A stretch of DNA of 64,000 bases from Alphaproteobacteria bacterium (GTDB lineage Bacteria > Pseudomonadota > Alphaproteobacteria > JAAXGF01): assembly GCA_963555825.3 (NCBI GenBank), contig CAUVXB020000001.1, positions 1,056,001 through 1,120,000 on the forward strand, in the 5' to 3' direction. This document shows, piece by piece, positions 3,140-59,211 of this stretch. Under the pieces are notes generated by a model that saw nothing but the letters and a program-made list of their open reading frames with translations, did not search any database and was not told the origin of the DNA. Made by a program: the position numbers and the translations under genes. Each line of letters begins with the position of its first letter. The first letter of the stretch is position 1.

Positions 3140-3898
3140 TCATGCCGCGGTGACGCCGCCGTCGGCGAACAGCGCCGAGCCGGTGATGAAGGTCGCATCG
3201 TCCGAGGCCAGGAAGGTGATCGCGCCGGCGATCTCGTCGGGCGTGCCGATGCGGCCCATGGGCGTCTCCTCGGCGATTTCCTTGAGCCTTTCCTCAGGGT
3301 TGTCGCGGTGGCCGACGAGCAGCGGCGTGTCGACCGGGCCGGGGCAGATTGCGTTGACGCGGATGCCCTCGCGCGCGTGGTCGATCGCCATGGCGCGGGT
3401 GAACTGCAGCACCGCGCCCTTGCTGGCGGCATAGGCGGCATTGTTGCGCGGCGCCGTGATTGCGAGCTCGGAAGCGGTGTTGACGATGACCCCGCCACCC
3501 TGGCGCTTCATGATCGGCAGCGCCCGGCGGCTCAGGAAGAACATCGCATCGAGATTGACCGCGAAGGTCAGCCGCCAATCCTCGTCGGACATCGTCTCGA
3601 CCGTTCCGCGGCGGCTGATGCCGGCATTGTTGACCAGCACGTCGAGGCACCCGAAGCGCGCCACGGTCTGGTCGATCGCCTCGTCGCAAAACGGGCGCAG
3701 GGCGAGATCGCCTTGCAGGTACGCCGCCTCGCCGCCGCCCGCCGCGATGTCGTCGACCACCGCGCGACACCCTTCCTCGTCCAGAGCACAGACCATGATG
3801 ACCCGGCCGCCCTCGGCGCCGAAGCGGCGCGCCGTGGCGGCGCCGATGCCCGAGCTCGCGCCGGTGATCAGGATTGTCTTGCCGTCGAACCGCGCCAT
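3140..3898 (-). CDS. Short-chain dehydrogenase/reductase (SDR)
   Basis: TGASSGIG, NNAG, YAASK, RVNAICPG motifs. Confidence 0.92.
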   Translation of the reverse strand: MARFDGKTILITGASSGIGAATARRFGAEGGRVIMVCALDEEGCRAVVDDIAAGGGEAAYLQGDLALRPFCDEAIDQTVARFGCLDVLVNNAGISRRGTVETMSDEDWRLTFAVNLDAMFFLSRRALPIMKRQGGGVIVNTASELAITAPRNNAAYAASKGAVLQFTRAMAIDHAREGIRVNAICPGPVDTPLLVGHRDNPEERLKEIAEETPMGRIGTPDEIAGAITFLASDDATFITGSALFADGGVTAA

Positions 3899-3901
3899 GG
3901 C

Positions 3902-4792
3902 CTACGCCCAGCTCTCGATCATCTTGATGATGCCCGAGAAGTCGACCTCCGCGTTGCCGCCCTCGCAGTAGCGCCCGTAGAGCGCTTCGGCCTGTGCACC
4001 GAGCGGGGTCGTCGCGCCGGTCGCGTTGGCCGCCTGCTGGGCCAGGCGCAGGTCCTTGAGCATCATGGCCGCCGTGAAGCCGGCCTGATAGTCGCGGTTG
4101 GCGGGTGAGGTCGGTACCGGACCGGGCACCGGGCAGTAGGTCGTCAGCGACCAGCACTGGCCCGACGCGGTCGACGCGATATCGAACAGCTTCTGAGCCT
4201 CGAGGCCGAGGCACTCGGCAAGCACGAAGGCCTCGCCGACGACGATCATCGAGGCGCCGAGGATCATGTTGTTGCAAATCTTTGCCGCCTGGCCGTTGCC
4301 CGAGGGACCGGCGTGGACGATCGTCTTGCCCATCACGGCGAGCACCGGCTCGGCGCGCGCGAAGGCGTCATCGGCGCCGCCGACCATGAAGGTGAGCGTT
4401 CCGGCCTCGGCGCCCGCCACGCCACCGGAGACCGGCGCATCGAGCATCTCGAAGCCGGCCTGGGCGGCGGCCCGGTTGACCGCGCGCGCCGTTTCGACGT
4501 CGATCGTCGAGCAATCGATCAGCAGCGTGCCGGGCGCCAGCGCCGCGATGATGCCGCCGTCACCCGTATAGACCTCGCGGACGTGCTCGCCGGCGGGCAG
4601 CATGGTGATGACGACGTCGCCCGCCGCCGCGGCGTCGGCCGCCGTCGCGGCGAGCGTCGCGCCGGCGTCGCGCGCCGCCTGGCGGGCGTCCTCGACGACG
4701 TCGAACGCGGTGACCTCGTGCCGCGCGCCGATCAGGTTGCGGAGCATCGGCCCGCCCATGTTGCCGACGCCGATGAAACCGATGCGCGCCAT
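3902..4792 (-). CDS. mmsB: 3-hydroxyisobutyrate dehydrogenase
   Basis: FIGVGNMG, DAPVSGG, AAKICNNM, YCPVPGPVPTSPANRDY signature; valine-catabolism neighbours. Confidence 0.95.
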   Translation of the reverse strand: MARIGFIGVGNMGGPMLRNLIGARHEVTAFDVVEDARQAARDAGATLAATAADAAAAGDVVITMLPAGEHVREVYTGDGGIIAALAPGTLLIDCSTIDVETARAVNRAAAQAGFEMLDAPVSGGVAGAEAGTLTFMVGGADDAFARAEPVLAVMGKTIVHAGPSGNGQAAKICNNMILGASMIVVGEAFVLAECLGLEAQKLFDIASTASGQCWSLTTYCPVPGPVPTSPANRDYQAGFTAAMMLKDLRLAQQAANATGATTPLGAQAEALYGRYCEGGNAEVDFSGIIKMIESWA

Positions 4793-7777: not shown

Positions 7778-8944
7778 CTAGTGTCCCGATTCCGAAGTTC
7801 GCATGATTTTCGCCTGCTGTTCAGCGATTTCGATTGTTCGGAGGCAGAAGCGCTGGATGGCGCCGAGGATGTCATCGGCGGATTTGGTCCATTTGAAGGG
7901 TTTGGGGTTCTGGTTTGTCGTGTCGATGTAGTCGAGGATGGTGCGCTCCAACTCCTTGGTGGAGCGATGGACGCCGCGCCTGATCTGCTTGTCGGTCAGC
8001 AGCCCGAACCAGCGCTCGACCTGGTTCAGCCAGGAGGCGCTGGTGGGTGTGAAATGGGCCTGCCAGCGCGGCCGTTTGGCGAACCAGTCGCGGATCGCCT
8101 TGGTCTTGTGGGTCCCGTAGTTGTCCATGACGATGTGGATGTCGAGATCAGCAGGGACGTTCGCCTCGACGAGGTCGAGGAATTTGCGGAACTCTCGGGC
8201 CCGATGGCGCGGGAAACATTTGCCGATGATCTCTCCCGTGGCGATGTCGAGGGCCGCGAAGAGAGAGGTCGTGCCGTGGCGCTTGTAGTCGTGGCTGCGC
8301 CGCTCCGCCTGCCCGGGGCGCATCGGCAAGAGGGGCTGGGAACGGTCCAGGGCCTGGATCTGGCTCTTTTCGTCGACACAGAGAACCAGGGCACGATCCG
8401 GCGGCGCCAAATACAGACCGACGATGTCGCGGACCTTCTCCACGAAGAAGGGATCGCTCGACAGCTTGAAGGTCTCCGAGCGATGCGGCTGCAAGCCGAA
8501 GGCCCGCCAGATGCGATGAATGGTCGAGGGCGCGTGGCCGTCGCCCGCGCCATCGAGCGAAGGCTCCAATGGGTCGCGTCCGGCGGCGTCTCTTCCAGCG
8601 TCAGCCGGACCGCTTCCGCGATGGCGTCATCGCCGTGACGCACCGTCGAGCCTCTATCTACATTCCGCCGCAAACGGCGGGCGATGATGACGCGCATGAC
8701 TTGCCCACGGTGTCCGCGCTCGCCTCGAGACGAACGGCGTGTTCTCCAACCCTTCCGCCGCCGCCAAGACGATCCGAGCCCGCCGCGCAAGCCCCTGCGA
8801 CGTCTTGCGACGACGAGACAGCGCCTCCAATTCGGCGCGCTCGTCATCGCTCAAAGAGATCGTCACCGCCACTCTCGCCATCAATCGCGCCTCCTAAAAA
8901 CAAATAGAGACATAATCATATCAATTTATCGATCAGGACACTAG
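7778..8944 (-). mobile_element. IS630-family insertion sequence, copy 2 (inverted relative to copy 1; transposase disrupted as assembled)
   Basis: Reverse complement of 4862-6046 with the same ends; 1-nt loss near 8540 and a scrambled patch at ~8634-8745 break the ORF. Confidence 0.92.
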
Positions 8945-28897: not shown

Positions 28898-29656
28898 TCA
28901 AGACGCCCCGTTCGCGACTATATCACCAGATGTTGTGGTCATGCGAGCGATACGATCAACAAATCGTTCGCGCGCCGGCGGCATCGCGCGACCGTCGGGG
29001 CCGAAGACATGGTCGTCGAGGAAGCGCCCGGCGAGCCGCAAGCCGGCCACCACCGCCGCGCCGTCGACCGCGCCCGCCCCGATCAGGAAGCCGGGCAACA
29101 CCAGCAACCGGTCGCGATAGGGCTCGCCGGCGGCACGGCTGACCGCCCGCCCCGTCTTGGGCGAAACATAGACCAGATCGTCGGTCCCGCCGGTCGCGGC
29201 GCAGCGCGCCAGATCGAGGCCGAAGCCCAACTCGCCGAGCAACCCGATCTCCCAGCGCACGTAATCGGTGGCCCAGCCGTCGGCGTCGACGATCGCCTCG
29301 ATCAGCGCGAATGTTGCATCGTAGAGCGCCGGATAGGGATGGCGTTCGGGCAGCGTCGCCTCGGCCACCGCGCAGGCCGACGCCAGGCCGGCCAGGCGCA
29401 GCGGATCATCGAGGATCCCCGCCGCATGCGAACGCACCAGCTCGCAGGTAAAGCTGCCGAGATGCTCGGCCAACCGGGCCCGCCACCGGGCGGCGACCAG
29501 ATTGCCCGCCTGATAGACGCCGCGCGCCCGCGACCCCGCGCCACCGCGCACCAGCCCGGCGTGCCGCCCGTGGCCGCGCGTAAAGAGCTGCACCACGGCG
29601 GACGCCTCGCCATGCTTCCGCGCCGCCAACACGATCCCGTCCTCGGTCCAGTCCAT
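28898..29656 (-). CDS. recO: DNA repair protein RecO
   Basis: MDWTEDGIVL..RKHGE, LGFGLDL..CAATG, YVSPKTGRAVS. Confidence 0.95.
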   Translation of the reverse strand: MDWTEDGIVLAARKHGEASAVVQLFTRGHGRHAGLVRGGAGSRARGVYQAGNLVAARWRARLAEHLGSFTCELVRSHAAGILDDPLRLAGLASACAVAEATLPERHPYPALYDATFALIEAIVDADGWATDYVRWEIGLLGELGFGLDLARCAATGGTDDLVYVSPKTGRAVSRAAGEPYRDRLLVLPGFLIGAGAVDGAAVVAGLRLAGRFLDDHVFGPDGRAMPPARERFVDRIARMTTTSGDIVANGAS

Positions 29657-29899
29657 GGGGGAGGTATAGCAAACGCAGACGAAGTACGGCGGATGAATTT
29701 GAGTGGTTATAGGGGTTCGTCGGAGACGCCGCGGTTATCGCCATCGGTAAGACGCGCCAGGTCTTCCTGCATTTTTCTGTAACGTCGCCCGTGCTCGCTC
29801 TCCGGGTAGCGCTCGGCATAGGGCCGCATGAGATGTATGGCCTCGTCCGTCGCCTCGATCGCCGATTCGGTTTCCCCTGCTTCTTCAAGCCTGTCCGAT

Positions 29900-30560
29900 A
29901 GAACCGAGAGGCTCAACGCCAGGTCCGGCTCGTAGCGCGCCGGACTCGCCGCCGCAAGGCGGCGAAAAATGTCCACCGCCTCGCGAACGGCCTCGAGCGC
30001 CGCCGGCGTGTCGCCGACTACGCTCATGTCAGCCGATAGGTTGTTGAGGCTCACCGCCAGGTTCGGCTCGTAGCGCGCCGGGCTCGCCGCTGCGAGGCGG
30101 CGATACAATTCCAATGTCTCACGAATGGCCTCCAGCGCCGCCGGCGCGTCGCCGACCGCGACCAAGCGGTTCGACAGGCTGTTCAGGCTCGACGCCAGGT
30201 CCTGCCCGTAGCGCGTCGGGCTCGCCTCCGCTAGACGGCGGCGTATCTCCACCGCCTCGCGAATCGCCTCCAGCGCCGCTGGCGCGTCGCCACCCTCGCT
30301 CAAGCGAATCGACAGGTTATTCAGGCTCGACGCCAGCTCCGGCTCGTAGCGCGCCGGGCTCGCCGCCGCTAGACGGCGAAATATCTCCACCGCCTCGCGA
30401 CTGGCCTCCAGCGCCGCCGGCGCATCGCCAACCGCGCTCAAACCATTCGACAGGTTGATCAGACTCCCCGCCAGGTCTGGCTCGTAGCGCGCCGGGCTCG
30501 CCGCCGCAAGACGGCGGCATATCTCCACCGCCTCGCGAATGGCCTCAAGTGCTCCCGCGT
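29900..30560 (-). repeat. About five tandem 138-bp (46-aa) TPR-like units
   Basis: cgtagcgcg anchor recurs at 29931, 30069, 30207, 30345, 30483. Confidence 0.92.
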
Positions 30561-31261
30561 TGTCTCCTACACTCGCACGAGCAACTGACAGATTGGTAAG
30601 CCGTGCGGATTTTTGAACGTCGTCGTCCACGACATCGGCCAGAGTTTTCCACACCGCGACATCCAGGGGCATTAGGCCCACCGGCAGAATTGCTTCACTG
30701 ACGAATGGGACAGCATGAAGACATCGAGCGGGATGTCCCTCAAATGCCGAGACGAGCCAGTTACTCAATCGATGCGCGTGTAGTCCAAGAACAATCTCGG
30801 TATCGTGAGTGAGCCGGCCTAACCGTTCGAGGCCCCCGGCGACATCGTCGCTAATCGCGGTCCAGAGCCAATCCGGCGCCCTTGCCGGAACGCGACCGAA
30901 CACCGTCACCACCAAAGCGGCAGCAAGGATATCTGGCGTGGGAGCAGGGAAGACATCGTTCTCTAATCGCCCGGAATTGCGCACAGCATCGACAACTTCG
31001 TTGGGTGGCGGCAAGCCTAGATCCAGCTCGGTCATTTGTGCGAGGTTCGTCAAATCCGCGCCACTCAAATCGCCTCGGATGGCCGCAAAGGAAGCTAGCC
31101 GCGGCAAAGCCTCGGAATTTAATCCAACCGCAACGCCCTCGTCCGCAAGGCGGGCGTGTTCGCGACCAACAAGCGCATCGATTACCTCCGGACCGCTCAA
31201 AGTGACTACGGAAACATCTGGGTGCAACACGCTGTGAATGGCGGCAGCCGCGATAAATAAA

Positions 31262-32902
31262 CCGACATTCCCCAGATGCCCTTCAAATTCATGGAAATCA
31301 TACCACCGTTCCACCACCAAGGGAACGGCATCCCTTCCGCAGCCATCCGATGGCTTGATTCTGGAGATTGGTCCTCGTCCGGAAGGCCATTACCCGGATT
31401 TTCCGCCATTCAGACAGACCCCTCCTGTCGTTTTCACCTGGCCATCGATTTTCCCGGCCTACACCGGAACGGGTCTTCGTCGTAGATCATCGATCAGACT
31501 CAGGATATTCCGGAACAGTTCCCTCGGCACCGCGACCTCGGCCAATTGGAACGTGACGTAGCGGCCATGGCTGACCACCTTGGCGCCGATCTTGACCAGC
31601 TTCTCCCGTAGCGTGGTCAGCGACCAGTGCTCGATCTCCTTCGGCAAGGCCAGCATCCGCATGAAGTTGGCGAGATTGTAGGCCAGGGCATGAAGCTGGA
31701 GCCGGACAGCATTGTCGCGGAACTTGCGGCACGACAATCGCGTCCATTTGATCGCGTTCTTGCCTTCCTTGATGTATTGCTCCGCCTTGCCCCGCTGATT
31801 GTAGAACCAAGTCACCCGCTCGGCGGAACGGGACAAGTTGGTGAGGATGAAGCCGACACGGGGAACCAGTTCACCGGGATGCCATTCAACCTTGGCCACG
31901 ACACGACGCTTTCTGTCCCAACTTCCAGCCCGGTAGCTGAAGCTGGCGTAATAGCGCCGCACATGGTTGGGCGGACGACCGACGGGGCGGGTCAGCAGGT
32001 GGGCAATGCTTTCCTGAAGAATTTGGTTCTTCGGCAACCGGATCGCGTAGAGAAAACCCTCACTTTCCAGGAACTCGTAGATGTCCGGTGCGGCAAAGGC
32101 GGCGTCCCCTCGGAAGTAGCGGCGCAGGTTCCGTTCCCGATAACGCTCAACGACCGGTTCCAGAACCTCACGCCAACCGTCGGCACTGTGGACATTGCCG
32201 GGGCGAAGGGAACACCGCTCCAGATCGCCGAACTGGTTGAACAGGAATAGTGGATGGTAGCAGGTGCAGCCGAAGTGACCATTGTACGCCGCTCCCTCTT
32301 GTTCGCCATGGGTCGGGCTGACGCTTGAGTCCATGTCGAGGATGATCATCTTCGGTGGGCGGCGGTCATGAACCTTGTCGATCCACGCCCCGTTCATCCC
32401 AGCCAGGACTTCGATGTTCGCATCGGTCGCCAGAAGCTCCGTCTCGAACCGCCCCATCTGGCTGGTGGACGCGGCCTGTCTGTCCACGGCCTTGCCACCA
32501 ACAATCCACCGCATGGCGGGATCACGTCCGAGACGGTCGGCGTCGTTTACGTCCTCATAACCACCAAGGCGACCAAACACCGACTGACGGAACTGCCCCG
32601 TCATGCCGTGCCATCCGTTCTTGCCGGTACGGCTGTCCTGAAAAATATCCCCGGCAACCTCGGTCAGGCCAAGGGCATCATCAAGCTCCCGATAGACCAG
32701 CAACCCGCCGTCGGAAGTGATCTGGGAGCCGTGAAATTCGAGCTTCAGGCGGCGGTCGAAATCGACCCGAAGGCCGTCCCGTTTCGATTCACCCATCGGG
32801 TGTGCCATGCAAACCACTCCATCAACGCCTCAACATATTGATTCTTATAGCAGAATCTCCATCTCAGGGCATCGAATATCGAGTTCACTTGGGAAATGGG
32901 GG
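31262..32902 (-). mobile_element. IS1380-family insertion sequence
   Basis: Ends CCGACATTCCCAG.../...TTGGGAAATGGGGG; 5-bp direct repeats ATAAA at 31257-31261 and 32903-32907. Confidence 0.9.
31459..32817 (-). CDS. IS1380-family transposase
   Basis: ITSDGGL, LDMDSS, HGEQEG, FRGDAAF, YNQRGKAEQYIKEGK. Confidence 0.93.
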   Translation of the reverse strand: MVCMAHPMGESKRDGLRVDFDRRLKLEFHGSQITSDGGLLVYRELDDALGLTEVAGDIFQDSRTGKNGWHGMTGQFRQSVFGRLGGYEDVNDADRLGRDPAMRWIVGGKAVDRQAASTSQMGRFETELLATDANIEVLAGMNGAWIDKVHDRRPPKMIILDMDSSVSPTHGEQEGAAYNGHFGCTCYHPLFLFNQFGDLERCSLRPGNVHSADGWREVLEPVVERYRERNLRRYFRGDAAFAAPDIYEFLESEGFLYAIRLPKNQILQESIAHLLTRPVGRPPNHVRRYYASFSYRAGSWDRKRRVVAKVEWHPGELVPRVGFILTNLSRSAERVTWFYNQRGKAEQYIKEGKNAIKWTRLSCRKFRDNAVRLQLHALAYNLANFMRMLALPKEIEHWSLTTLREKLVKIGAKVVSHGRYVTFQLAEVAVPRELFRNILSLIDDLRRRPVPV

Positions 32903-33089
32903 ATAAAGGGCGTTGATGGATGTCGGCGGTACCTAGCCATTCGTCGAAGGAGTCTTCGGTAATTACATTTGGTTTGATTTTCTTTTTATCTGCCAAGCGT
33001 TGCTGAGCGCTTTGGAATGCTTTATATGGCGCGTCTCCAGCCAAGAGTTGGAGCTCAACAGGCTCCCTGTCGAAGTAATACCAGTGAGC

Positions 33090-33301
33090 CTATGAAATCA
33101 CCTTCATGATCCATGGATAGGCGCAGAGGGTTCGCATACGATCCGGTTCTGCGATGAGGTCGATCCATGCTTGGCAACAGGCGTCGATGATGGCCTCGGT
33201 GTCGTCGAGGACGCGGAGCGATAGGAAGCGTTCGCGTAGGTAGAGCCAAACCCGCTCGACGGGGTTGAGTTCGGGACTGTAAGGCGGCAACAGCGCCAAG
33301 G
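33090..33301 (-). pseudogene. IS630 transposase C-terminal fragment
   Basis: LLPPYSPELNPVERVW motif; rejoins ..PDNVTL at 34639 when the IS3 is removed. Confidence 0.88.
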
Positions 33302-33363
33302 TGAGGTGGTCCCACTTTGTTGGACAGTTTGGCAGCGCGGTTAAGGTGTATTCCGTTGTTTGA

Positions 33364-34293
33364 TCATGCTGCCAAAATCCTTTTTATCACATCCTGTTGC
33401 TGTTGTTGAGCCTGTGGGGATGTGGGCAAGGCGCGAGCCTTGTCCATCATATCCACAGGTTGACCGGCCCCGTAGGCCTCGGCCGGCGTTTGACCGTCGA
33501 GGGACGAATGGGGCCGCTCGGTGTTGTAGAAGCCGATCCACTCGCCGATGACCCGTTCGGCGTGGAAGCCGTCGGTGAGCTCGTGTAGGTAGACCGCCTC
33601 ATACTTGAGAGACCGCCACAGGCGCTCGATGAAGATGTTGTCCATGCAGCGGCCCCGACCGTCCATGGAGATGCGGATGCTCGCGTTCTTGAGCACGCCG
33701 GTGAAGTCGAGGCTGGTGAACTGGCTGCCCTGATCCGTATTGAATATCTCCGGCTGGCCGTAGCGGGCCAGCGCGTCGCCCAAGGCCTCGGCGCAGAATC
33801 CAGCGTCCATGGTGTTCGACAGCCGCCAGGATAAAACGTGGCGCGTCGCCCAGTCCATGATCGCTACCAGGTACAGAAAGCCACGCTGGACGGGGATATA
33901 GGTGATGTCGGCGCACCAGACCCGATTGGGCTGGTCGATAGCCATCCCTTTGAGAAGATAAGGATAAATCCGGTGCATGGGATGCGGCACGCTGGTTCTC
34001 GGCGCCTGATAGATCGCCTCCAGGCCTATCAATCGCATCAACCTGCGAACCCGGTGACGGCCGACGCAAACGCCGTCCCGCCGCAACTGGCGGACCATCT
34101 GGCGGCTGCCGTAGAACGGGTACTTCATGAACAACTCGTCGATCCGACGCATCAGCGCCAGACTCGAAGGGCTCTCCCCCCTGGGCGCATAATAGAACGA
34201 GGACCGGCCGATCGAAAGCAGGCGGCATTGACGGCTCAAGCTCAGCTCGGGGGCGTCGCGTGTGATCATCGCCTTGCGCTCCCCCCGGCTCAT
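33364..34293 (-). CDS. IS3-family transposase OrfB
   Basis: WCADITY, FNTDQGSQF, DNIFIERLWRSLKYE. Confidence 0.93.
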   Translation of the reverse strand: MSRGERKAMITRDAPELSLSRQCRLLSIGRSSFYYAPRGESPSSLALMRRIDELFMKYPFYGSRQMVRQLRRDGVCVGRHRVRRLMRLIGLEAIYQAPRTSVPHPMHRIYPYLLKGMAIDQPNRVWCADITYIPVQRGFLYLVAIMDWATRHVLSWRLSNTMDAGFCAEALGDALARYGQPEIFNTDQGSQFTSLDFTGVLKNASIRISMDGRGRCMDNIFIERLWRSLKYEAVYLHELTDGFHAERVIGEWIGFYNTERPHSSLDGQTPAEAYGAGQPVDMMDKARALPTSPQAQQQQQDVIKRILAA

Positions 34294-34571
34294 CGCTTGA
34301 GCCCTCTGGCTAAAAAATCCCGTTCCACCGTCAGCTCGCCGATCTTGGCGTGAAGGTCGCGGACCTCGGATTCATGATCCCGGCAAGCGCGGTTGGCGCC
34401 GTTCGAAAACACTTCGCCCAGACCGTCCACCGCCTGGCGCTTCCAGGCGCTCACCTGGTTCGGATGCACCTTGTGCTTGGCCGCGATCTGCTGGATCGTC
34501 TTGTCGCCCCGCAGCGCTTCCAGCGCCACCCGGGCCTTGAATTCCGCCGTAAACCGGCGTCGATTCGTCAT
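34290..34571 (-). CDS. IS3-family transposase OrfA
   Basis: RRRFTAEFKARVALEA HTH; ATGA overlap with OrfB. Confidence 0.92.
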   Translation of the reverse strand: MTNRRRFTAEFKARVALEALRGDKTIQQIAAKHKVHPNQVSAWKRQAVDGLGEVFSNGANRACRDHESEVRDLHAKIGELTVERDFLARGLKR

Positions 34572-34638
34572 CTCGTATTCCTCCGTTATCCGGTGGAATA
34601 CACCTTAGCTCCCTGTCCGATTTTCTGGGACCACCTCA

Positions 34639-35010
34639 AGGTGACGTTGTCGGGGACGGTGAGGGCGCGCTCGTCGTGCCAACCGGCGCCGTCGCACATC
34701 ATGACGGCGTGCGCATCCTGGTCCAGGGTATCGGCGAAGTGTGCGAGAAACAGGTCCATGACCTTGGCGTTGACGCTCGGCATCACCAGGGTGACGTCGT
34801 CGCCGGTGTCCGGGCGCACGGCGGAGAAGATGTAGGCCCACTGGTAGCCGATTTGACGCGTCCCGGGGGCACGCTCGCCCCTGCGCCACCACCGGTGACA
34901 CACCCGGCCCTTGTTGCCGACGCGCGCTTCATCCTGAAACCACAGCTGTAGGCGCTTGTCGGGATGCGCCGCGGCGGTCGCCTTCAGGATGTCGCGAAGC
35001 CCCCTTTTTT
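34639..35010 (-). pseudogene. IS630 transposase DDE-domain fragment
   Basis: WFQDEARVG, MCDGAGWH; entered by a -1 shift at the AAAAAAGGGGG run near 35000-35010. Confidence 0.85.
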
Positions 35011-35496
35011 GAAGCGCTCCTGCGCTTCGGCGTCCCTTCGCGGGTGGCTCGGGCGCGCCTTCTGGCGGGAAAATCCCATCCGCCGTAGAACCCGGGTCAT
35101 GCTCGAGGGGTGGTAGGTCTTGGCGAAGCGCTCCTCCAGCCAGCGGCACAGATCGGCCCGGGTCCAGGCGCAAACCCCGTCGCGCTCAGGCTCCGGCCCG
35201 GCGATGATGACCGCCGCCAGCGCCGCTTCCTCGTCTGCCGTCAGCCGCCGCGGCGAGTAGCCCTTTGGACGGTCGTGAAGCCCCTCCAATCCCTTTGCAT
35301 TGTAACGAACAACCGCGTCGCGAAGCGTTTGGCGATCCATCCCCGCAAGCCGCGCGGCATCAGCCCGGGGCATCTCCTCCAAAGCATTCGCGATCCCATA
35401 GGCCCGCGCCGCCGCTCGACCGTACGATTCCACGCGAGCCCAGCGCCGAAGCTCCAAAGGCGTCAAATCATCCCGTATCTTGAGTGCTGATCCCAT
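34984..35496 (-). CDS. IS630 transposase N-terminal HTH ORF
   Basis: MDRQTLRDAVVRYN..GLEGL.D, WTRADL, LRRMGFSRQKARP; ends FKKGG at the slippery run. Confidence 0.85.
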   Translation of the reverse strand: MGSALKIRDDLTPLELRRWARVESYGRAAARAYGIANALEEMPRADAARLAGMDRQTLRDAVVRYNAKGLEGLHDRPKGYSPRRLTADEEAALAAVIIAGPEPERDGVCAWTRADLCRWLEERFAKTYHPSSMTRVLRRMGFSRQKARPSHPRRDAEAQERFKKGGFATS

Positions 35497-36066
35497 GACA
35501 TCCCCCACATCTGGTGGGAGACCATAGAATCACAATCCGCCATCATCCGCCATCAATGAATATCCCGAGAGTCAATTCAGGCGCTCACTGGTATAAGTTA
35601 TGGCCCCGTCGGCACGGGCGATTTCCTGTTCCCAAATATCCCAGCCCCGGCGACTTAGAAAAAGCAGCCGGATGCGATGTTTGGTCTCGACACGGCTGAG
35701 ATTCTCCAGAAGCGCTCGCACGCCTTCGCGCAGTTCCTCGGGGTAATCGATGAGAATGAGGGTTCCGGACTTATTCGCGAAATAGGCGCCGGGAGATCGT
35801 AGATTGACGAATCCGGCGGCCCACCCTTCCTTGCGAAGTTCATCGGCGATTTCGGCAGCCAGACGTGTCTTACCCACGCCGCCCTCGCCGGTGACAAATC
35901 GGGCGAGGACACCCGCTCCTTCTTGCTTCGCCCAGTCGATGACTTCCGTCTTGACGTCGTTGCGGCCTACAAAGTCGGAGAGTCGGGTCCGCCAGTTGAG
36001 CCATGCCAATTCGTGCTGGCTAGTGCGGACGGTGTCCCACCTCAGCGTAAGAGATTCCACAGTCTC

Positions 36067-36126
36067 CTGAGTGATATTGCCGTGCACATCTCCAAACACG
36101 ACCACACCGGAGATGTCGCGCGCTTT
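36067..36126 (-). repeat. Shared 20-aa motif, copy in NLR N-terminus (KARDISGVVVFGDVHGNITQ)
   Basis: 17/20 aa identical to the copy at 36302-36361. Confidence 0.9.
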
Positions 36127-36175
36127 GAGTTTCTTCAGCCACTCAAGTTTGTCGGGCGAGAGGAACCGCATCAGG

Positions 36176-36439
36176 TCATGCGAATAGTATGCTTGCAATC
36201 ACCATTACCGAGCCGGTGATCCCCAGCAGCACATTGATCAATGTCAGGATTTCCTTCCAGAGTGAGGGCTTTGGCGGAGGTTCGGGCTTTGGTTCCCGAT
36301 GCTGGGTCACGTCGCCGTGGACGTCGCCCATGACGACGACGCCCGAGATATCCCGCGCCTTGACCTTTCGGCCGACGTTGATCGCGAGAACGACGAGCAC
36401 GATCAGCCCGGCCCACAACAGGAGATTATTCTCCAGCAT
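36176..36439 (-). CDS. 87-aa two-TM protein with central amyloid-like motif; candidate effector of the adjacent NLR
   Basis: G-rich RBS; hydrophobic runs at aa ~6-22 and ~63-86; motif at aa 27-46; Pro-rich linker; stop 4 nt before the NLR ATG. Confidence 0.8.
   Translation of the reverse strand: MLENNLLLWAGLIVLVVLAINVGRKVKARDISGVVVMGDVHGDVTQHREPKPEPPPKPSLWKEILTLINVLLGITGSVMVIASILFA
36302..36361 (-). repeat. Shared 20-aa motif, copy in the small TM protein (KARDISGVVVMGDVHGDVTQ)
   Basis: See 36067-36126. Confidence 0.9.
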
Positions 36440-36550: not shown

Positions 36551-37459
36551 CTACCTCGGAAACTCCAGCCCCAGGTCGCGGTAGCGGGCCGGGTCGTCGG
36601 CCCATTTGGGGGCGACCTTGACGTGGAGGAAGAGGTGGACGCGGCGCTCCAGCGAGGCCTCGAGGTCTTCGCGCGCGGCTGAGCCGACCGCCTTGATCAG
36701 GCGGCCGCCCTTGCCGAGCACCATCGGCTTGTGGTTTTCGCGAGCGATGTAGATGATCTGGTCGATGCGCACCGAGCCGTCCTTGCGCTCGTCCCAGTTC
36801 TCGGTCTCGACGGTGAGCCCATAGGGCAGTTCCTGGTGCAGGCGCAGGAACAGCTTCTCGCGGGTCGTTTCGGCGGCCAGCAGGCGCAGCGGCATGTCGG
36901 AGATCTGGTCTTCGGGATAGTGCCAGGGGCCGGCCGGCACCCGCGCGGCGAAGAAGTCGCGCAGGTCGTCGATGCCGTCGCCGTCGAGCGCCGAGATCAT
37001 GAAGGTGTCGGTGAAGACGCCGGTCGCGTCGAGCTCGGCCGTCAGCGGCAGCAGGGCGGCGCGCTTGACCAGGTCGATCTTGTTGAGCGCCGCGATCGCC
37101 CGACGCCCGCGCCGCTTCAGGCCGTCGATGATGCGCTGGGCGTCGGAGTCGATGCCGCGTTTGGCGTCGATCAGCACGACGACGATGTCGGCGTCGCGCG
37201 CGCCGCCCCAGGCGGCGTCGACCATGGCCCGGTCGAGGCGGCGGACGGGCTGAAAGATGCCCGGCGTGTCGATGAAGACGAGCTGGGCGTCGCCCGCCAT
37301 GGCAATCCCTGTTACCCGGGTCCGCGTGGTCTGCACCTTAGGTGTGACGATCGAGACCTTGCCGCCGACCAGCGCGTTCAAGAGCGTCGACTTGCCGGCG
37401 TTTGGCGCGCCGACCAGCGCGATGAAGCCGCAGCGCGTATTCGTTGCTTCGGTGTTCAT
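36551..37459 (-). CDS. era: GTPase Era
   Basis: GAPNAGKS, QTTR, DTPG, NKID, KH domain VLGKGG. Confidence 0.97.
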   Translation of the reverse strand: MNTEATNTRCGFIALVGAPNAGKSTLLNALVGGKVSIVTPKVQTTRTRVTGIAMAGDAQLVFIDTPGIFQPVRRLDRAMVDAAWGGARDADIVVVLIDAKRGIDSDAQRIIDGLKRRGRRAIAALNKIDLVKRAALLPLTAELDATGVFTDTFMISALDGDGIDDLRDFFAARVPAGPWHYPEDQISDMPLRLLAAETTREKLFLRLHQELPYGLTVETENWDERKDGSVRIDQIIYIARENHKPMVLGKGGRLIKAVGSAAREDLEASLERRVHLFLHVKVAPKWADDPARYRDLGLEFPR

Positions 37460-38145
37460 TCCTCGCCCCTGACGCGCGCCATCAGCACGGCCGCGGCGGC
37501 CTGCTCGGCGCTGCGTTTCGAGGCGCCGGAGGCGCTCGCCGGCGCATGCCCCTCGACGCGCACCTCGATCTCGAATGTCGGACTGTGCGCCGGCCCCTCG
37601 GTGCTCACCGTGGCGTAGCGCGGCAGGGCGAGGCCGTTCGCCTGGGCCCATTCCTGCAGCGCGGTCTTGGCGTCCTTTGGCGGTCCCTCGGCGGCGCGCA
37701 TGGCGGGCGCCAAATGGCGCCGGACGAAGCGCTCGGCGATGGCCAGGCCGCCGTCGAGGTAGAGCGCGCCGATCACCGCCTCGAGGGCGTCGGCGAGGGT
37801 CGCCGGGTTCTCGCGCCCGCCGGTCTCGGCCTCGCCCCGGGTCATCTCGATGACCGCCGCGAGGCCGATGCCGTCGGCGATCGCGGCCAGCGATTCGCGC
37901 CGCACCAGGCTGGTGAAGCGGAGCGCCAGCGCGCCCTCGTCCTCGTCGGGGAACGCCGCCAAAAGCATGTCGGCGACGACCAGGCCGAGCACCCGGTCGC
38001 CGAGGAATTCGAGGCGCTCGTAACCGTGACCGCGGCCACTCGCGCTCGGGTGCGTCAGCGCCTCGGCCAGCAGGGCTGGGCGCGCGAAGTCATGCTCGAC
38101 GATGGCGGCGGCGGCGGCCATGCGGTCGGCGTCGTCCGAGTTCAA
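37456..38145 (-). CDS. rnc: Ribonuclease III
   Basis: ERLEFLGDRVLG signature, C-terminal dsRBD; start TTG 38145 or ATG 38121. Confidence 0.97.
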   Translation of the reverse strand: MNSDDADRMAAAAAIVEHDFARPALLAEALTHPSASGRGHGYERLEFLGDRVLGLVVADMLLAAFPDEDEGALALRFTSLVRRESLAAIADGIGLAAVIEMTRGEAETGGRENPATLADALEAVIGALYLDGGLAIAERFVRRHLAPAMRAAEGPPKDAKTALQEWAQANGLALPRYATVSTEGPAHSPTFEIEVRVEGHAPASASGASKRSAEQAAAAVLMARVRGEE

Positions 38146-56264: not shown

Positions 56265-57073
56265 GCGGAAACTACGTCATGGCGAAGGCCGATCCAGGTC
56301 TTGGTGAGACATTACTCGCGGTGCGCGATTGGGCCCGGGGCGAGGCGGCGCCGTATCTCACCTGGTTGCCCAATTGGATAGAGCCCTACGCGGTGGACAC
56401 CGGCGCAGCCCTGGTACTGTTTGCCGCCGTCATCGCGGCGTGGCGGTTTGGGGCTGAACTCTGGGGCGCCGCGATCTGGGCGCCGCGCGGGGTTTGGCGG
56501 TGGGCCACCGGCATTCAAGCGCCGAAGAGCGAAACCGAAGAAATACGCGACGACGTCAAAAAAAATTCGCGACGACATAGAAGCGCTGGTGCGGGCACAA
56601 ATCGAGGCACAAGTCCAGGATTCGCGAGGTGAAGGTGAAGAACTAGCGATAGATGTCGTCGAACGCGCCGTCGCCGCTGCTCGTGAGGTTTTGCTTTCCA
56701 ACGATCCCTCCAAGGCCGAGGCTCAGAAAGCGCTGCGCGACGGCGACATGAAAGCGGCCGAAGATGCGCTCGAGCGCGCGTTTGCCCAGGAGGCTGACGC
56801 GGCGCTGCGCGTGAACGACGAAGCCCAACAACTCAATGCGAAAGCCGCGCGAACCGCGCGGGAGAAAGCCGCCTTGGCCGCCACACGATCGGTGGCGGAC
56901 GCGATTCATTGGTACGGAAAGGCTGCCGAATTCGAACCCGCAGATTTTTGGACGCACATCGAGTTGGCCCGTTTGCATATTGCAAAGGGCGACCTTTCAT
57001 CGGCACTACGAGCCGGCGAGGCCGGACGTGACGCCGCAAGAGATGATCGAGATGGAGCCGTTGTGTCTGATCA

Positions 57074-57528
57074 GATCGGCGACGTGCAGGTCAAGCAGGG
57101 CAATCTCACCGATGCGCTCGCCAGCTACCAGGCCTCCATTGACATCCGAGAACGACTGGCGGCGGCCGATCCGGGCAACGCCGGCTGGCAGCGCGACCTG
57201 TCGGTTTCGCATAACAAGATCGGCGACGTGCAGGTCCAGCAGGGCAATCTCACCGATGCGCTCGCCAGCTACCAGGCCGATTTGGACATTGCTCAGCGCC
57301 TTGCGGCAGCCGATCCGGGAAACGCCGGCTGGCAGCGCGACCTGTCGGTTTCGCATAACAAGATCGGCGACGTGCAGGTCCAGCAGGGCAATCTCACCGA
57401 TGCGCTCGCCAGCTACCAGGCCTCCTTGGACATTGTTCAACGACTGGCGGCGCCCGATCCGGGCAACGCCGGCTGGCAGCGCGATCTGTCAGTTTCGCAG
57501 GAAAGGATCGGCGACGTGCAGGTCCAGC
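57074..57528 (+). repeat. 144-bp (48-aa) TPR-like tandem units
   Basis: cggcgacgtgcaggtc anchor at 57077, 57221, 57365, 57509; further partial unit 58949-59052. Confidence 0.92.
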
Positions 57529-57563
57529 TGTATCGCACCCGGTTCCTTGGACACAAGTTTGTC

Positions 57564-58475
57564 TCATGCGGCGGGCCTGAGTGACATCGCGGTGTGCCAC
57601 GCCTGACGAGCTTGAGCGGGGCTCAGGTAGCCGTTCTTCTCCACGATCCACTGGGCATTGTACTGTTCGACGAACCCGCGGACGGCGTTCCGCAGCTCCG
57701 CGATGTTGCGGTAGATGCGGCCATGGATGATCTGTTCCTTGAGCGTGCGATTGAACCTCTCGGCGACGCCGTTGGTCTGGGGCTGTTCGACGAAGGCGTA
57801 GGACGGCTGGATGCCCCAGAACTTGATCTGGTTGGTGAAGTGGTCCGACAGATACTGGGAGCCGTGATCCATCCGCAAGGCCAGCCCCCGCGCCGCACCG
57901 GCGGAGGTCGAGGCATACAGCCTCGCAAGCCCCATGGAGATCGGCTGAAGGGCGGCGAAGCGGTCGCCTCGCTTGCACACATGCCAGCCGACGCACTCGG
58001 CGTTCCAATGCTCGATGGCGGTGAATATCCAGCCCCAGCCGTCGTCCACCGTGAACACCCGAACGCCGTCCGTGCCCCACATGAGGTTGGGGGCATGGGT
58101 GATGATCTCACCGACATGGGGATTTCCGCCACGGCGGCGGCAGCGATGGGGCGAGAGCAGGTTGTTCTCGCGCATCACCCGGAGCCCCCGCTTGCGGGAA
58201 ACACGGATGCCACGACAGACCCGAAGCCGAGCCCAGACCTTGCGGTGTCCCTCGCCCTCCCAGGGGGATGCCTCCAGGTCGGCCTCGATGGCCACCAGCA
58301 GAGCCTCGTCCGAGATCGAGGGCTTCGGTCCCCGGCGCTTTGCTGGTGGGCGCTCAGCGGTGGCCTGCTGCCGGGATTTCATGGCGTAGAACGAGGAACG
58401 GGCAAAACCCCAGGCCGCACAGACCCGCTGGAGGCCGTAGGCCAAACCCGTGCCGGGAGAGGTGGCGGCACTCAT
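57564..58475 (-). CDS. IS3-family transposase OrfB (integrase core)
   Basis: WGTD, RMDHGSQY, NGVAERFNRTLKE. Confidence 0.9.
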   Translation of the reverse strand: MSAATSPGTGLAYGLQRVCAAWGFARSSFYAMKSRQQATAERPPAKRRGPKPSISDEALLVAIEADLEASPWEGEGHRKVWARLRVCRGIRVSRKRGLRVMRENNLLSPHRCRRRGGNPHVGEIITHAPNLMWGTDGVRVFTVDDGWGWIFTAIEHWNAECVGWHVCKRGDRFAALQPISMGLARLYASTSAGAARGLALRMDHGSQYLSDHFTNQIKFWGIQPSYAFVEQPQTNGVAERFNRTLKEQIIHGRIYRNIAELRNAVRGFVEQYNAQWIVEKNGYLSPAQARQAWHTAMSLRPAA

Positions 58476-58903
58476 CGCCGCGACCTCCGCCGCCCCAAAG
58501 GGCCGGACGTCTCCGTCTTGGCCTCCAGCAGTTCCACCTGCATGATCAACTCCCCGATCCGCTTCATGGCGATGTCCAGTTCCGCCTTCACCGGATCGCC
58601 CTTGCGTTCCTTGAGCGAGGCATCGATCCCGGCGATCGCCTTCTCACGCCACTGCTCGAGCCGGAAAATCTCCACGCCCAACTGCCGCGACAAAAGTTCC
58701 ACCGGCTCGCCACGCAAAAGCCGCAGGGCAACCTCACGCTTGCGCGTCACCGTCCACCGCTGGCCAAGTCCCAGCGGGCCTGCCGGCGAAACCTGGCCCG
58801 GGGAAAACGTGGACGAGCCAAGCTCGCCCTCGTTTACCACAGGCCCATCAACAGCAACTTTGTTCTCAAAATTGTCGGTCATGTTCCGGTCCTCCTTGGA
58901 CAC
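58472..58903 (-). CDS. IS3-family transposase OrfA
   Basis: RWTVTRKREVALRLLRGE HTH plus coiled coil; ATGA overlap with OrfB. Confidence 0.82.
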   Translation of the reverse strand: MSKEDRNMTDNFENKVAVDGPVVNEGELGSSTFSPGQVSPAGPLGLGQRWTVTRKREVALRLLRGEPVELLSRQLGVEIFRLEQWREKAIAGIDASLKERKGDPVKAELDIAMKRIGELIMQVELLEAKTETSGPLGRRRSRR

Positions 58904-59211
58904 TTCGATTAAGCCAATTCTGTGTCCAAGGAAATCGGGTCCGACTCAACCAGGCCGATTTGGACATTGCTCAGCGCCTTGCGGCGGCCGATCCGGGCAA
59001 CGCCGGCTGGCAGCGCGACCTGTCGGTTTCGCACGAGAAGATCGGCGACGTGCTGGAGGCGCGTGGCGACATCGATGCGGCGATCGAGGCACACGAAGAG
59101 AGCCTGGTAATTGCGCAGTCTCTCGCGGACCGGTTCCCCGACCACACACAATTCCAAGCCGATGTGGCGATCACGAAACGCAGGCTTGAGGAACTCCGCG
59201 CAAATCGACCC

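Follow-up and report, generated by a model that had tools for sequence, protein, structure and literature searches.

In fungi, signaling by an amyloid-type motif that connects a nucleotide-binding oligomerization domain-like receptor (NLR) to its cell-death effector is established; for filamentous bacteria it has been proposed, and in Escherichia coli it has been shown once, for the pair Bab/Agp (Ibarlosa et al., 2024, bioRxiv 10.1101/2024.11.07.622273). In all of these cases, the motif lies C-terminally on a folded effector domain (Dyrka et al., 2020, bioRxiv 10.1101/2020.01.06.895854; Ibarlosa et al., 2024). Here, we describe two neighboring genes with a common 20-residue motif in a 64,000-nucleotide stretch of the genome of an Alphaproteobacteria bacterium (GenBank assembly GCA_963555825.3, contig CAUVXB020000001.1, positions 1,056,001 to 1,120,000), referred to as the window and numbered from its first letter. 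One gene encodes an 87-residue protein with two predicted transmembrane (TM) helices, hereafter the microprotein, and the other an NLR-like P-loop ATPase with tetratricopeptide (TPR) repeats, which is broken by insertion sequences (ISs) in this genome. On balance, we favor the view that the two genes form a receptor/effector module akin to the bacterial amyloid signaling sequence (BASS) pairs, in which the effector is of a new type, namely a TM hairpin that carries the motif in its cytoplasmic loop.

The locus resembles the Bell/NLR pairs of BASS1–10, in which a motif of ~20–25 amino acids is common to the N-terminus of a P-loop/TPR receptor and to the product of an adjacent, mostly collinear gene. 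These pairs also show tiny intergenic distances or overlaps and a motif rich in G, N, Q, V, and I and poor in K, P, and L, features which recur here (Dyrka et al., 2020). Unlike the effectors of the BASS pairs, the microprotein has no Bell or globular domain, and its motif lies in the predicted cytoplasmic loop between the TM helices, not at the C-terminus. The motif sequences reported here vary from pair to pair, and their likeness to BASS motifs is one of architecture and composition, not of comparison with a BASS profile. Likewise, Bab/Agp (BASS11) consists of two genes, with a motif of ~20 residues linking a TPR sensor to a small (109-aa) membrane-targeting executioner; abortive infection in E. 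coli works by this common motif and is abolished by beta-breaker mutations (Ibarlosa et al., 2024). The function of Bab/Agp has been shown by experiment, whereas that of the window pair is predicted from sequence. NLR-like architectures are described as rare or absent in Proteobacteria (Dyrka et al., 2020), whereas the source genome of the window groups with a class whose named NLR homologues are Alphaproteobacteria.

In the fungal pair NWD2/HET-S, a motif at the N-terminus of the NLR is similarly matched in the membrane-targeting effector encoded by the neighboring gene, and HET-s has two pseudorepeats with a flexible loop between them. The N-terminal motif of NWD2 templates that of HET-S, and refolding of the HeLo domain upon HET-S activation exposes a TM helix. 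In contrast, the microprotein is predicted to be inserted in the membrane from the outset, and its activation would therefore have to work by clustering. Small two-TM effectors are also known from CBASS (cyclic oligonucleotide-based antiphage signaling) and Pycsar (pyrimidine cyclase) systems, where they are thought to disrupt the inner membrane upon oligomerization; these are activated by a nucleotide ligand via a sensor domain and not by a receptor-matched peptide motif, and PADLOC revealed no sequence relationship to them (no match). A first-pass annotation of the window, made from its letters alone, had likened the motif to the core of the RIP homotypic interaction motif (RHIM), which is the tetrad (I/V)-Q-(I/V/L)-G. 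This resemblance was not sustained: the core found here, V-V-V-(M/F)-G, lacks the glutamine, and neither protein matches RHIM in Pfam at E ≤ 0.1 or any other motif family.

The signaling principle is already known; the novelty lies in how the effector is built and in how large its unannotated family is. The first-pass annotation had not recognized this architecture as a described one, and no account of a two-TM effector with an internal motif was found in the literature searched, with the proviso that the supplementary tables of Dyrka et al. (2020) and Ibarlosa et al. (2024) could list such pairs.

A Motif Shared by the NLR-Like ATPase and the Microprotein

The microprotein gene (36176–36439, minus strand) encodes TM helix 1, a basic stretch, the 20-aa motif, a proline-rich linker, and TM helix 2, as delimited from its open reading frame (ORF) and its homologues. 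Its TGA stop codon is followed after a gap of 4 nt by the ATG of the receptor gene at 36171, and the positions given for both genes in the first-pass annotation are confirmed. The motif occupies residues 27–46 of the microprotein (KARDISGVVVMGDVHGDVTQ; 36302–36361, minus strand; pairwise and profile comparison) and residues 16–35 of the ATPase (KARDISGVVVFGDVHGNITQ; 36067–36126, minus strand; pairwise and hhalign comparison), whose ~40 N-terminal residues carry a Gly/Val/Asn/Asp-rich strand-turn-strand motif. Seventeen of the 20 residues are identical, six of them encoded by the same codon and 11 by synonymously different ones, in agreement with the counts first reported. Because 11 of the 17 identical residues use different codons, the comparison supports selection on the peptide and not on the DNA, as had been argued. 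The observed local score of 98 was reached by none of 5000 shuffles of the ATPase N-terminus (best shuffle 48), the receptor-side motif matches the microprotein at E 8.1e-6, and a six-frame scan of the 6.04-Mb genome located the motif at these two places only. The further claim that similarity is confined to the motif holds for the window pair, whose local alignment spans 23 residues. At the level of the family it does not hold, since hhalign matches the two families over a module of ~30 columns (probability 96.8%, E 2.2e-10) and the similarity extends in some homologues past the motif via a Pro-rich stretch up to a conserved Trp.

Two further pairs were found with their genomic context, at independent loci and each with a matched motif of its own. 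In the metagenome locus L006, the gene for an 88-aa two-TM protein (2702–2968) has an ATGA overlap with the start of the gene for a 976-aa P-loop/TPR protein; the shared stretch is TVSTKADNGGVAVGRDNNGVVNTGAI on the microprotein side and TESTTADHSGIAIGGDNYGIASTGTI on the receptor side. In G179 (locus L131), a genome of the same class, the gene for a 93-aa two-TM protein is convergent with that for an 891-aa P-loop/TPR protein and lies 8 nt past its stop; here, the microprotein has NISGNVIGGDARGTVTMNY and the receptor NMVGNVVLGDVTGNLTMNF. The window (4-nt gap) and L006 (ATGA overlap) thus have the collinear arrangement with a short gap or overlap, to which G179 is the exception, and the association survives the changed gene order. 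The three cognate pairs score 98, 77, and 65, as opposed to 19–48 for the six non-cognate combinations, and none of 5000 shuffles reached any cognate score. The motif therefore co-varies between the partners of each of the three pairs with context, a point which the first-pass annotation had singled out for checking; its proposal of a matched motif on an NLR-like N-terminus and on a neighboring tiny membrane protein is borne out by the comparison. The 3.6-kb NLR–microprotein cassette of L131 is bracketed by duplicated fragments of flanking genes (3818–4364 and 7916–8085; 47 nt at 96% and 87 nt at 95% identity, order swapped), which suggests an insertion or rearrangement at that site.

The same motif type is present at the N-terminus of nine of the 20 NLR homologues inspected (P0011–P0019). 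In a wider set of 121 NLR homologues, 30 have an N-terminal motif scoring ≥60 against the best of 67 microproteins, to be read with the shuffle ceiling of 48 stemming from single-pair and not from best-of-67 comparisons. Several motif subtypes can be distinguished, and they run in parallel in the microproteins and in NLR homologues which were found independently via the NTPase domain. A second group of close NLR homologues (P0020–P0028, L003, L005, and L124) has a different conserved N-terminus, a hydrophobic FNFINIE-type stretch followed by SG(I/V)V(L/V)TG, and no partner gene is seen for it in the available DNA.

The Microprotein Family and Its Predicted Topology

Ten homologous clusters (54–100% identity) all retain both helices and the motif, and residues R29, I31, S32, V35, V36, M37, G38, G42, and V44 are invariant in 10 microprotein homologues. 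A family profile built from 12 microproteins and searched against 1.84 billion representatives retrieved 57 clusters at E ≤ 1e-3, seven of them at E ≤ 1e-10. Most members are 73–125 aa long, the exceptions being P0157 (137 aa) and P0169 (215 aa). Over 1150 residues of 56 proteins, the motif is enriched in G (2.5-fold), V (2.4-fold), N (2.2-fold), I (1.5-fold), and, alongside D, Q (1.4-fold), and depleted in L (0.07-fold), P (0.11-fold), and K (0.67-fold), relative to a background of UniProt average frequencies. The same compositional bias is reported for BASS motifs and beta-helical proteins (Dyrka et al., 2020).

In the window microprotein, TM helix 1 corresponds to a hydrophobic stretch at approximately residues 5–22 (36374–36427, minus strand) and TM helix 2, placed by alignment and AlphaFold2 (AF2), to approximately residues 61–85 (36185–36259, minus strand), including Asn69, which is invariant in the close family. 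Two hydrophobic segments are found by a Kyte-Doolittle scan in 52 of the 56 aligned family members; P0169 (fused), P0137 (which lacks the second helix), and four one-helix forms were omitted. Across the 52 two-TM members, lysine and arginine number 93 in the first eight loop residues as compared to two in the N-terminal tail, and 88 in the last eight loop residues as compared to 21 in the C-terminal tail. Based on this charge bias, the motif loop is placed in the cytoplasm, in an N-out, C-out hairpin, which agrees with the orientation first proposed from the basic residues that follow TM helix 1. The AF2 monomer model (10-sequence alignment) consists of helices 2–31 and 60–86 and a loop with a predicted local distance difference test (pLDDT) value of <50; the single-sequence model of P0157 also shows two helices and a disordered loop (pLDDT <50), with no beta-solenoid. 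A disordered loop would be expected for such motifs in monomer models and proves nothing with regard to amyloid formation.

The motif is internal (residues 27–46 of 87), between the TM helices and not C-terminal, and no Bell or globular domain was found using Pfam, NCBIfam, PADLOC, and AF2. No family of Pfam, NCBIfam, or PADLOC matches the microprotein, and the Atlas cluster nearest to the L006 homologue is annotated merely as "hypothetical protein." Several family members depart from the common layout. P0157, from a metagenome, contains two motif pseudorepeats of ~24 aa with an 18-aa Pro/Ala/Gly linker between them, an arrangement also described for BASS1/6 effectors and HET-s (Dyrka et al., 2020). 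Four members lack the first helix and have an N-terminal motif followed by one C-terminal TM helix. In the metagenomic P0169, the NTPase directly follows TM helix 1 and the motif; the N-terminal part of this protein agrees with the free microprotein P0147, and its C-terminus is aberrant. Rather than the normal state, P0169 most likely represents a product of recombination or of chimeric assembly, in which the two motif copies of a fourth pair were joined. A fusion of both ORFs in relatives, which the first-pass annotation had named as a finding that would count against a two-gene system, therefore occurs once (1/57 clusters), in what reads as a truncated recombinant. The homology search for the microprotein among longer proteins (0/432 candidates scored) is weak evidence on fused forms.

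The distribution of the module is sporadic. With the microprotein as query, no match was obtained in 60 relatives; the NLR family is present in five of 401 genomes of the class, and the microprotein profile (A4) matches one of 50 genomes of the order of G179, namely G179 itself. Context scans with the N-terminal NLR alignment (A2, eight sequences) yielded 69 metagenome-contig and 51 genome-contig loci, among which the microprotein was found in L006 alone (pairwise scan; hmmsearch with A4 of the 9444 ORFs from 143 loci); partners located downstream may have escaped notice, because the 3-kb flanks seldom pass the 3′ end of the NLR gene. No locus was confirmed by context scans with the microprotein alignment A1 (478 metagenome and 96 genome contig pattern matches), and tblastn of the microprotein against plasmids gave no match.

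Several weak candidates were rejected. In 400 genomes of the phylum, A4 gave three matches (E 2.6e-4 to 9.5e-4) inside open frames of 458–592 aa, which we did not count as members of the family. Two of 401 genomes matched in the phylum of G783; one locus (L138) was rejected on inspection and the other (L139) consists of scattered fragments only. Both phylum searches scored 12 candidates per genome and are of low sensitivity. A weak match in G179 (G179:C5, L130) is an alternative frame of a membrane-protein gene. NLR homologues with 37–39% identity in the NTPase are encoded on plasmids of Rhizobium ruizarguesonis (L140, 3363–7133) and Rhizobium sp. SL42 (L141, 3342–6669). Each precedes a ~140-aa protein which starts with MEP or MEI and for which no Pfam family was found; these starts recall the "MEPIS" N-terminus mentioned for Bell-like domains (Ibarlosa et al., 2024). 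An apparent motif common to the Rhizobium NLRs and the ~140-aa proteins was rejected, as it was matched by 686/2000, 1273/2000, and 121/2000 shuffles. A caspase-family gene lies close by in L141.

The Candidate Receptor Gene and Its Insertion Site

The intact 766-aa form of the receptor, P0011 from the protein collection, is 99.4–100% identical to three separated pieces of the window (tblastn; 36171–35593, 33077–32904, and 31260–29710). Fragment 1 (35593–36171, minus strand; aa 1–193, 100% identity) holds the N-terminal motif and the P-loop NTPase domain, and its ORF of 199 aa stops at an IS junction. Fragment 2 (32904–33077, minus strand) corresponds to aa 193–250 (100% identity), and fragment 3 (29707–31260, minus strand) to aa 250–766 plus the stop codon, comprising a helical middle region and the TPR repeats (99.4% identity). 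The P-loop and TPR repeats first assigned to the gene following the microprotein are therefore both present, in a gene that is split by ISs and not whole, with the TPR part ~4.3 kb downstream of the 199-aa ORF.

The TPR repeats exceed the Pfam thresholds (TPR_10, E 1.7e-19; TPR_12, E 1.4e-16), and all Pfam matches of the NTPase are sub-threshold, namely AAA_16 (29.7 bits vs. a cutoff of 32.6), NPHP3_N, nSTAND3, NACHT (E 0.032), and NB-ARC (E 0.043). Three elements show no variation in A2, namely Walker A (GEGGVGKT; 35866–35889, minus strand), a Walker B of the form hhhhDYPEE, and the strand LLFLSRR. Homologues carry precomputed Pfam matches to AAA_16, nSTAND3, and PF25199 (nSTAND_NTPase5), the last of which is matched by a Rhizobium homologue below threshold (E 4.5e-5), and no relative of P0011 was found among PDB sequences using phmmer. 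Judged by these profiles, the receptor is graded as similar to the signal transduction ATPases with numerous domains (STAND-like), neither a proven NB-ARC nor a proven NACHT member. In more distant homologues of the NTPase, the precomputed Pfam listings include domains of the TIR, nucleoside phosphorylase, trypsin-like, or alpha/beta-hydrolase type. As read from domain listings without positions, these would occupy the N-terminal slot held here by the motif, which would thus stand where an effector is expected because the distant homologues carry enzymatic effector domains there; "all-in-one" counterparts of motif-bearing NLRs have been described (Dyrka et al., 2020).

An IS630-type insertion (33078–35592, minus strand; HTH_33/HTH_32 and DDE_3 by Pfam) with TA at both ends splits the NLR gene after aa 193 and contains a nested IS3-type element (33297–34636, minus strand; HTH_Tnp_1 orfA and rve orfB by Pfam). 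The gene is split again after aa 250 by a third IS (31261–32903, minus strand, limits from tblastn) with a 452-aa DDE_Tnp_1_4 transposase (Pfam, E 8.9e-137). In contigs of three of four public runs (X5, X7, and X10, not X1), position 33075 is joined directly to 35594, skipping 2518 nt, with TA..TA ends and at single-copy depth; related populations thus lack the IS630-type insertion. A joint skipping the IS3-type element (33296 to 34637, 1340 nt) occurs in all four runs at high depth, and contigs of X1, X7, and X10 extend from the NLR side ~30 nt into the third IS. The receptor is a recent pseudogene in this genome, and the microprotein ORF is intact. Due to the inactivation of the receptor gene by three ISs, the module is probably non-functional here. 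In the four public runs, word depths range from hundreds up to tens of thousands for the IS segments, as compared to 6–87 for flanking single-copy DNA, which indicates that these IS types are very abundant in those samples. Several runs that carry the sequence are labeled as sponge metagenome, and none of those listed is an RNA run.

The module is inserted between era (GTPase; 36551–37651, minus strand; MMR_HSR1 and KH_2) upstream and recO (28898–29656, minus strand; RecO_N and RecO_C) downstream, which form the boundaries of the insertion site. No sigma-70-like promoter or intrinsic terminator was found between era and the microprotein gene. Homologous NLR-like genes lie directly downstream of era in five loci, the window, L004, L124 (G176), L126 (G348), and L127 (G041), with recO visible on the far side in the window and L004, and the rnc-era-recO cluster looks like a recurrent insertion site. 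L004, whose context is complete, has the order rnc-era-NLR-recO and no visible microprotein; the N-termini of L004, L124, L126, and L127 differ from that of the window NLR. Elsewhere in the window (56421–59189), a second TPR-repeat gene (387-aa ORF, 56421–57584) is apparently interrupted by a transposase gene (57564–58475, minus strand), and a TPR-like stretch at 58960–59169 resembles the TPR region of the NLR (37% identity).

Candidate Mechanism and Alternative Explanations

For this module, we infer an amyloid fold, templating, membrane damage, and a role in defense, which would be connected as follows. The STAND-like NTPase with its TPR repeats would act as a cytoplasmic receptor in which a ligand induces oligomerization. 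The oligomer would gather several N-terminal motifs, which may fold cooperatively into a cross-beta (beta-arch) structure (cross-beta spacing is ~4.8 Å). This fold could in turn recruit or template the loop motifs of the 87-aa inner-membrane hairpin, and TM hairpins packed in a tight array would damage the inner membrane, leading to cell death of the abortive-infection type. A bolder version, which we put forward tentatively and with some doubt, is that the microproteins are the smallest NLR-controlled executioners known, in which a prion-like templating loop zippers pre-inserted hairpins at this spacing into a filament embedded in the inner membrane, which is ruptured as a result.

A number of points weigh against an amyloid-type module. 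The AF2 monomer models leave the loop unstructured and give no direct evidence of amyloid. Since the motif is internal and no Bell or globular domain is found, an unfolding of a helical domain as in HET-S cannot apply. PADLOC-DB 2.0 contains no family matching the microprotein or P0011 at E ≤ 0.01, and the NTPase attains no Pfam STAND model at the gathering threshold. The site is flanked by housekeeping genes, with no recognized defense island. Close NLR homologues occur with no microprotein in the visible DNA, in L004 with its complete context and in L124, L126, and L127/L142, whose views are cut by contig ends. Pairs with genomic context number only three, and an intact microprotein beside a destroyed receptor fits a harmless, unactivated effector and, equally, a function independent of the NLR.

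The main rival explanation is that the motif is a non-amyloid homotypic adaptor which tethers the ATPase to the inner membrane by stoichiometric beta-augmentation, with the microprotein as an anchor, a co-sensor of membrane events, or a regulator, and with the output located elsewhere. The motif match, gene linkage, and co-variation would fit any homotypic contact, and AF2 yields no beta structure. The fused P0169 demonstrates, at the level of sequence, that an ATPase anchored in the membrane is viable, and in some NLR homologues the motif is preceded by a hydrophobic or amphipathic stretch. Furthermore, homotypic coupling between an NTPase receptor and the product of an adjacent gene has been proposed for effector-associated domains (EADs), in which the same small module is likewise found on both partners (Kaur et al., 2020, eLife, PMC7159879). 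EADs are folded domains fused to enzymatic or other effector domains, whereas the module described here is a strand-rich peptide of ~20–30 residues inside a TM hairpin. A tether would leave the system with no output, since the receptor lacks any further effector domain and TM helices and the motif are all that the microprotein contains, and the BASS-like composition together with the pseudorepeats of P0157 favors stacking over a 1:1 contact. We therefore regard a tether as unlikely, while giving it real weight.

A non-immune signaling or regulatory pair, in which the NTPase/TPR switch controls a membrane process via the microprotein and has no role in cell death or against phages, would be consistent with the lack of PADLOC matches for the microprotein and P0011, with the housekeeping surroundings between era and recO, and with a broken receptor that is seemingly tolerated in several populations. 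It is improbable in view of the sporadic distribution (0/60, 1/50, and 5/401), the recurring insertion site, and the fast diversification of the motif, which are typical of conflict systems, and of the TIR, phosphorylase, and protease effector domains borne by homologues. Even less probable is a guard or decoy arrangement in which the microprotein caps the motif of the NLR like an antitoxin and the assembly of the NLR motif is itself toxic. The matched motif and the tight translational linkage agree with it, as do similar N-terminal motifs in NLR homologues with no microprotein nearby, e.g., L004; a cap, however, would need no pair of conserved TM helices, and the convergent genes of G179 are not translationally coupled. 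The loss of the receptor with the putative antitoxin kept is uninformative either way. Finally, it is scarcely credible that the small ORF has no function and is merely left over from a duplication of the 5′ part of the NLR gene: the two share ~30 homologous columns, but different codons are used for 11 of the 17 identical residues, 57 clusters retain the motif together with both TM helices, and the pairing outlasts a change of gene order.

If the pair is indeed a BASS-like module with a hairpin effector, the principle of amyloid-type NLR signaling would extend to unannotated two-TM proteins of ~90 aa with the motif inside a membrane hairpin, and would reach a genome with alphaproteobacterial named NLR homologues, a group thought to be poor in NLR-like systems. 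Such microproteins are at present annotated as "hypothetical" or left uncalled. With 87 aa and a 20-aa motif, the pair would constitute a minimal system for how templated polymerization becomes membrane damage, and, in the bolder version, amyloid templating would be coupled to that damage in a distinct way, without the unfolding of a domain. The microproteins form a diverse family of at least 57 clusters, with several co-diversifying motif subtypes in common with STAND/TPR receptors, and these parallel subtypes in receptors and microproteins would provide a natural set for the specificity and cross-talk of amyloid signaling.

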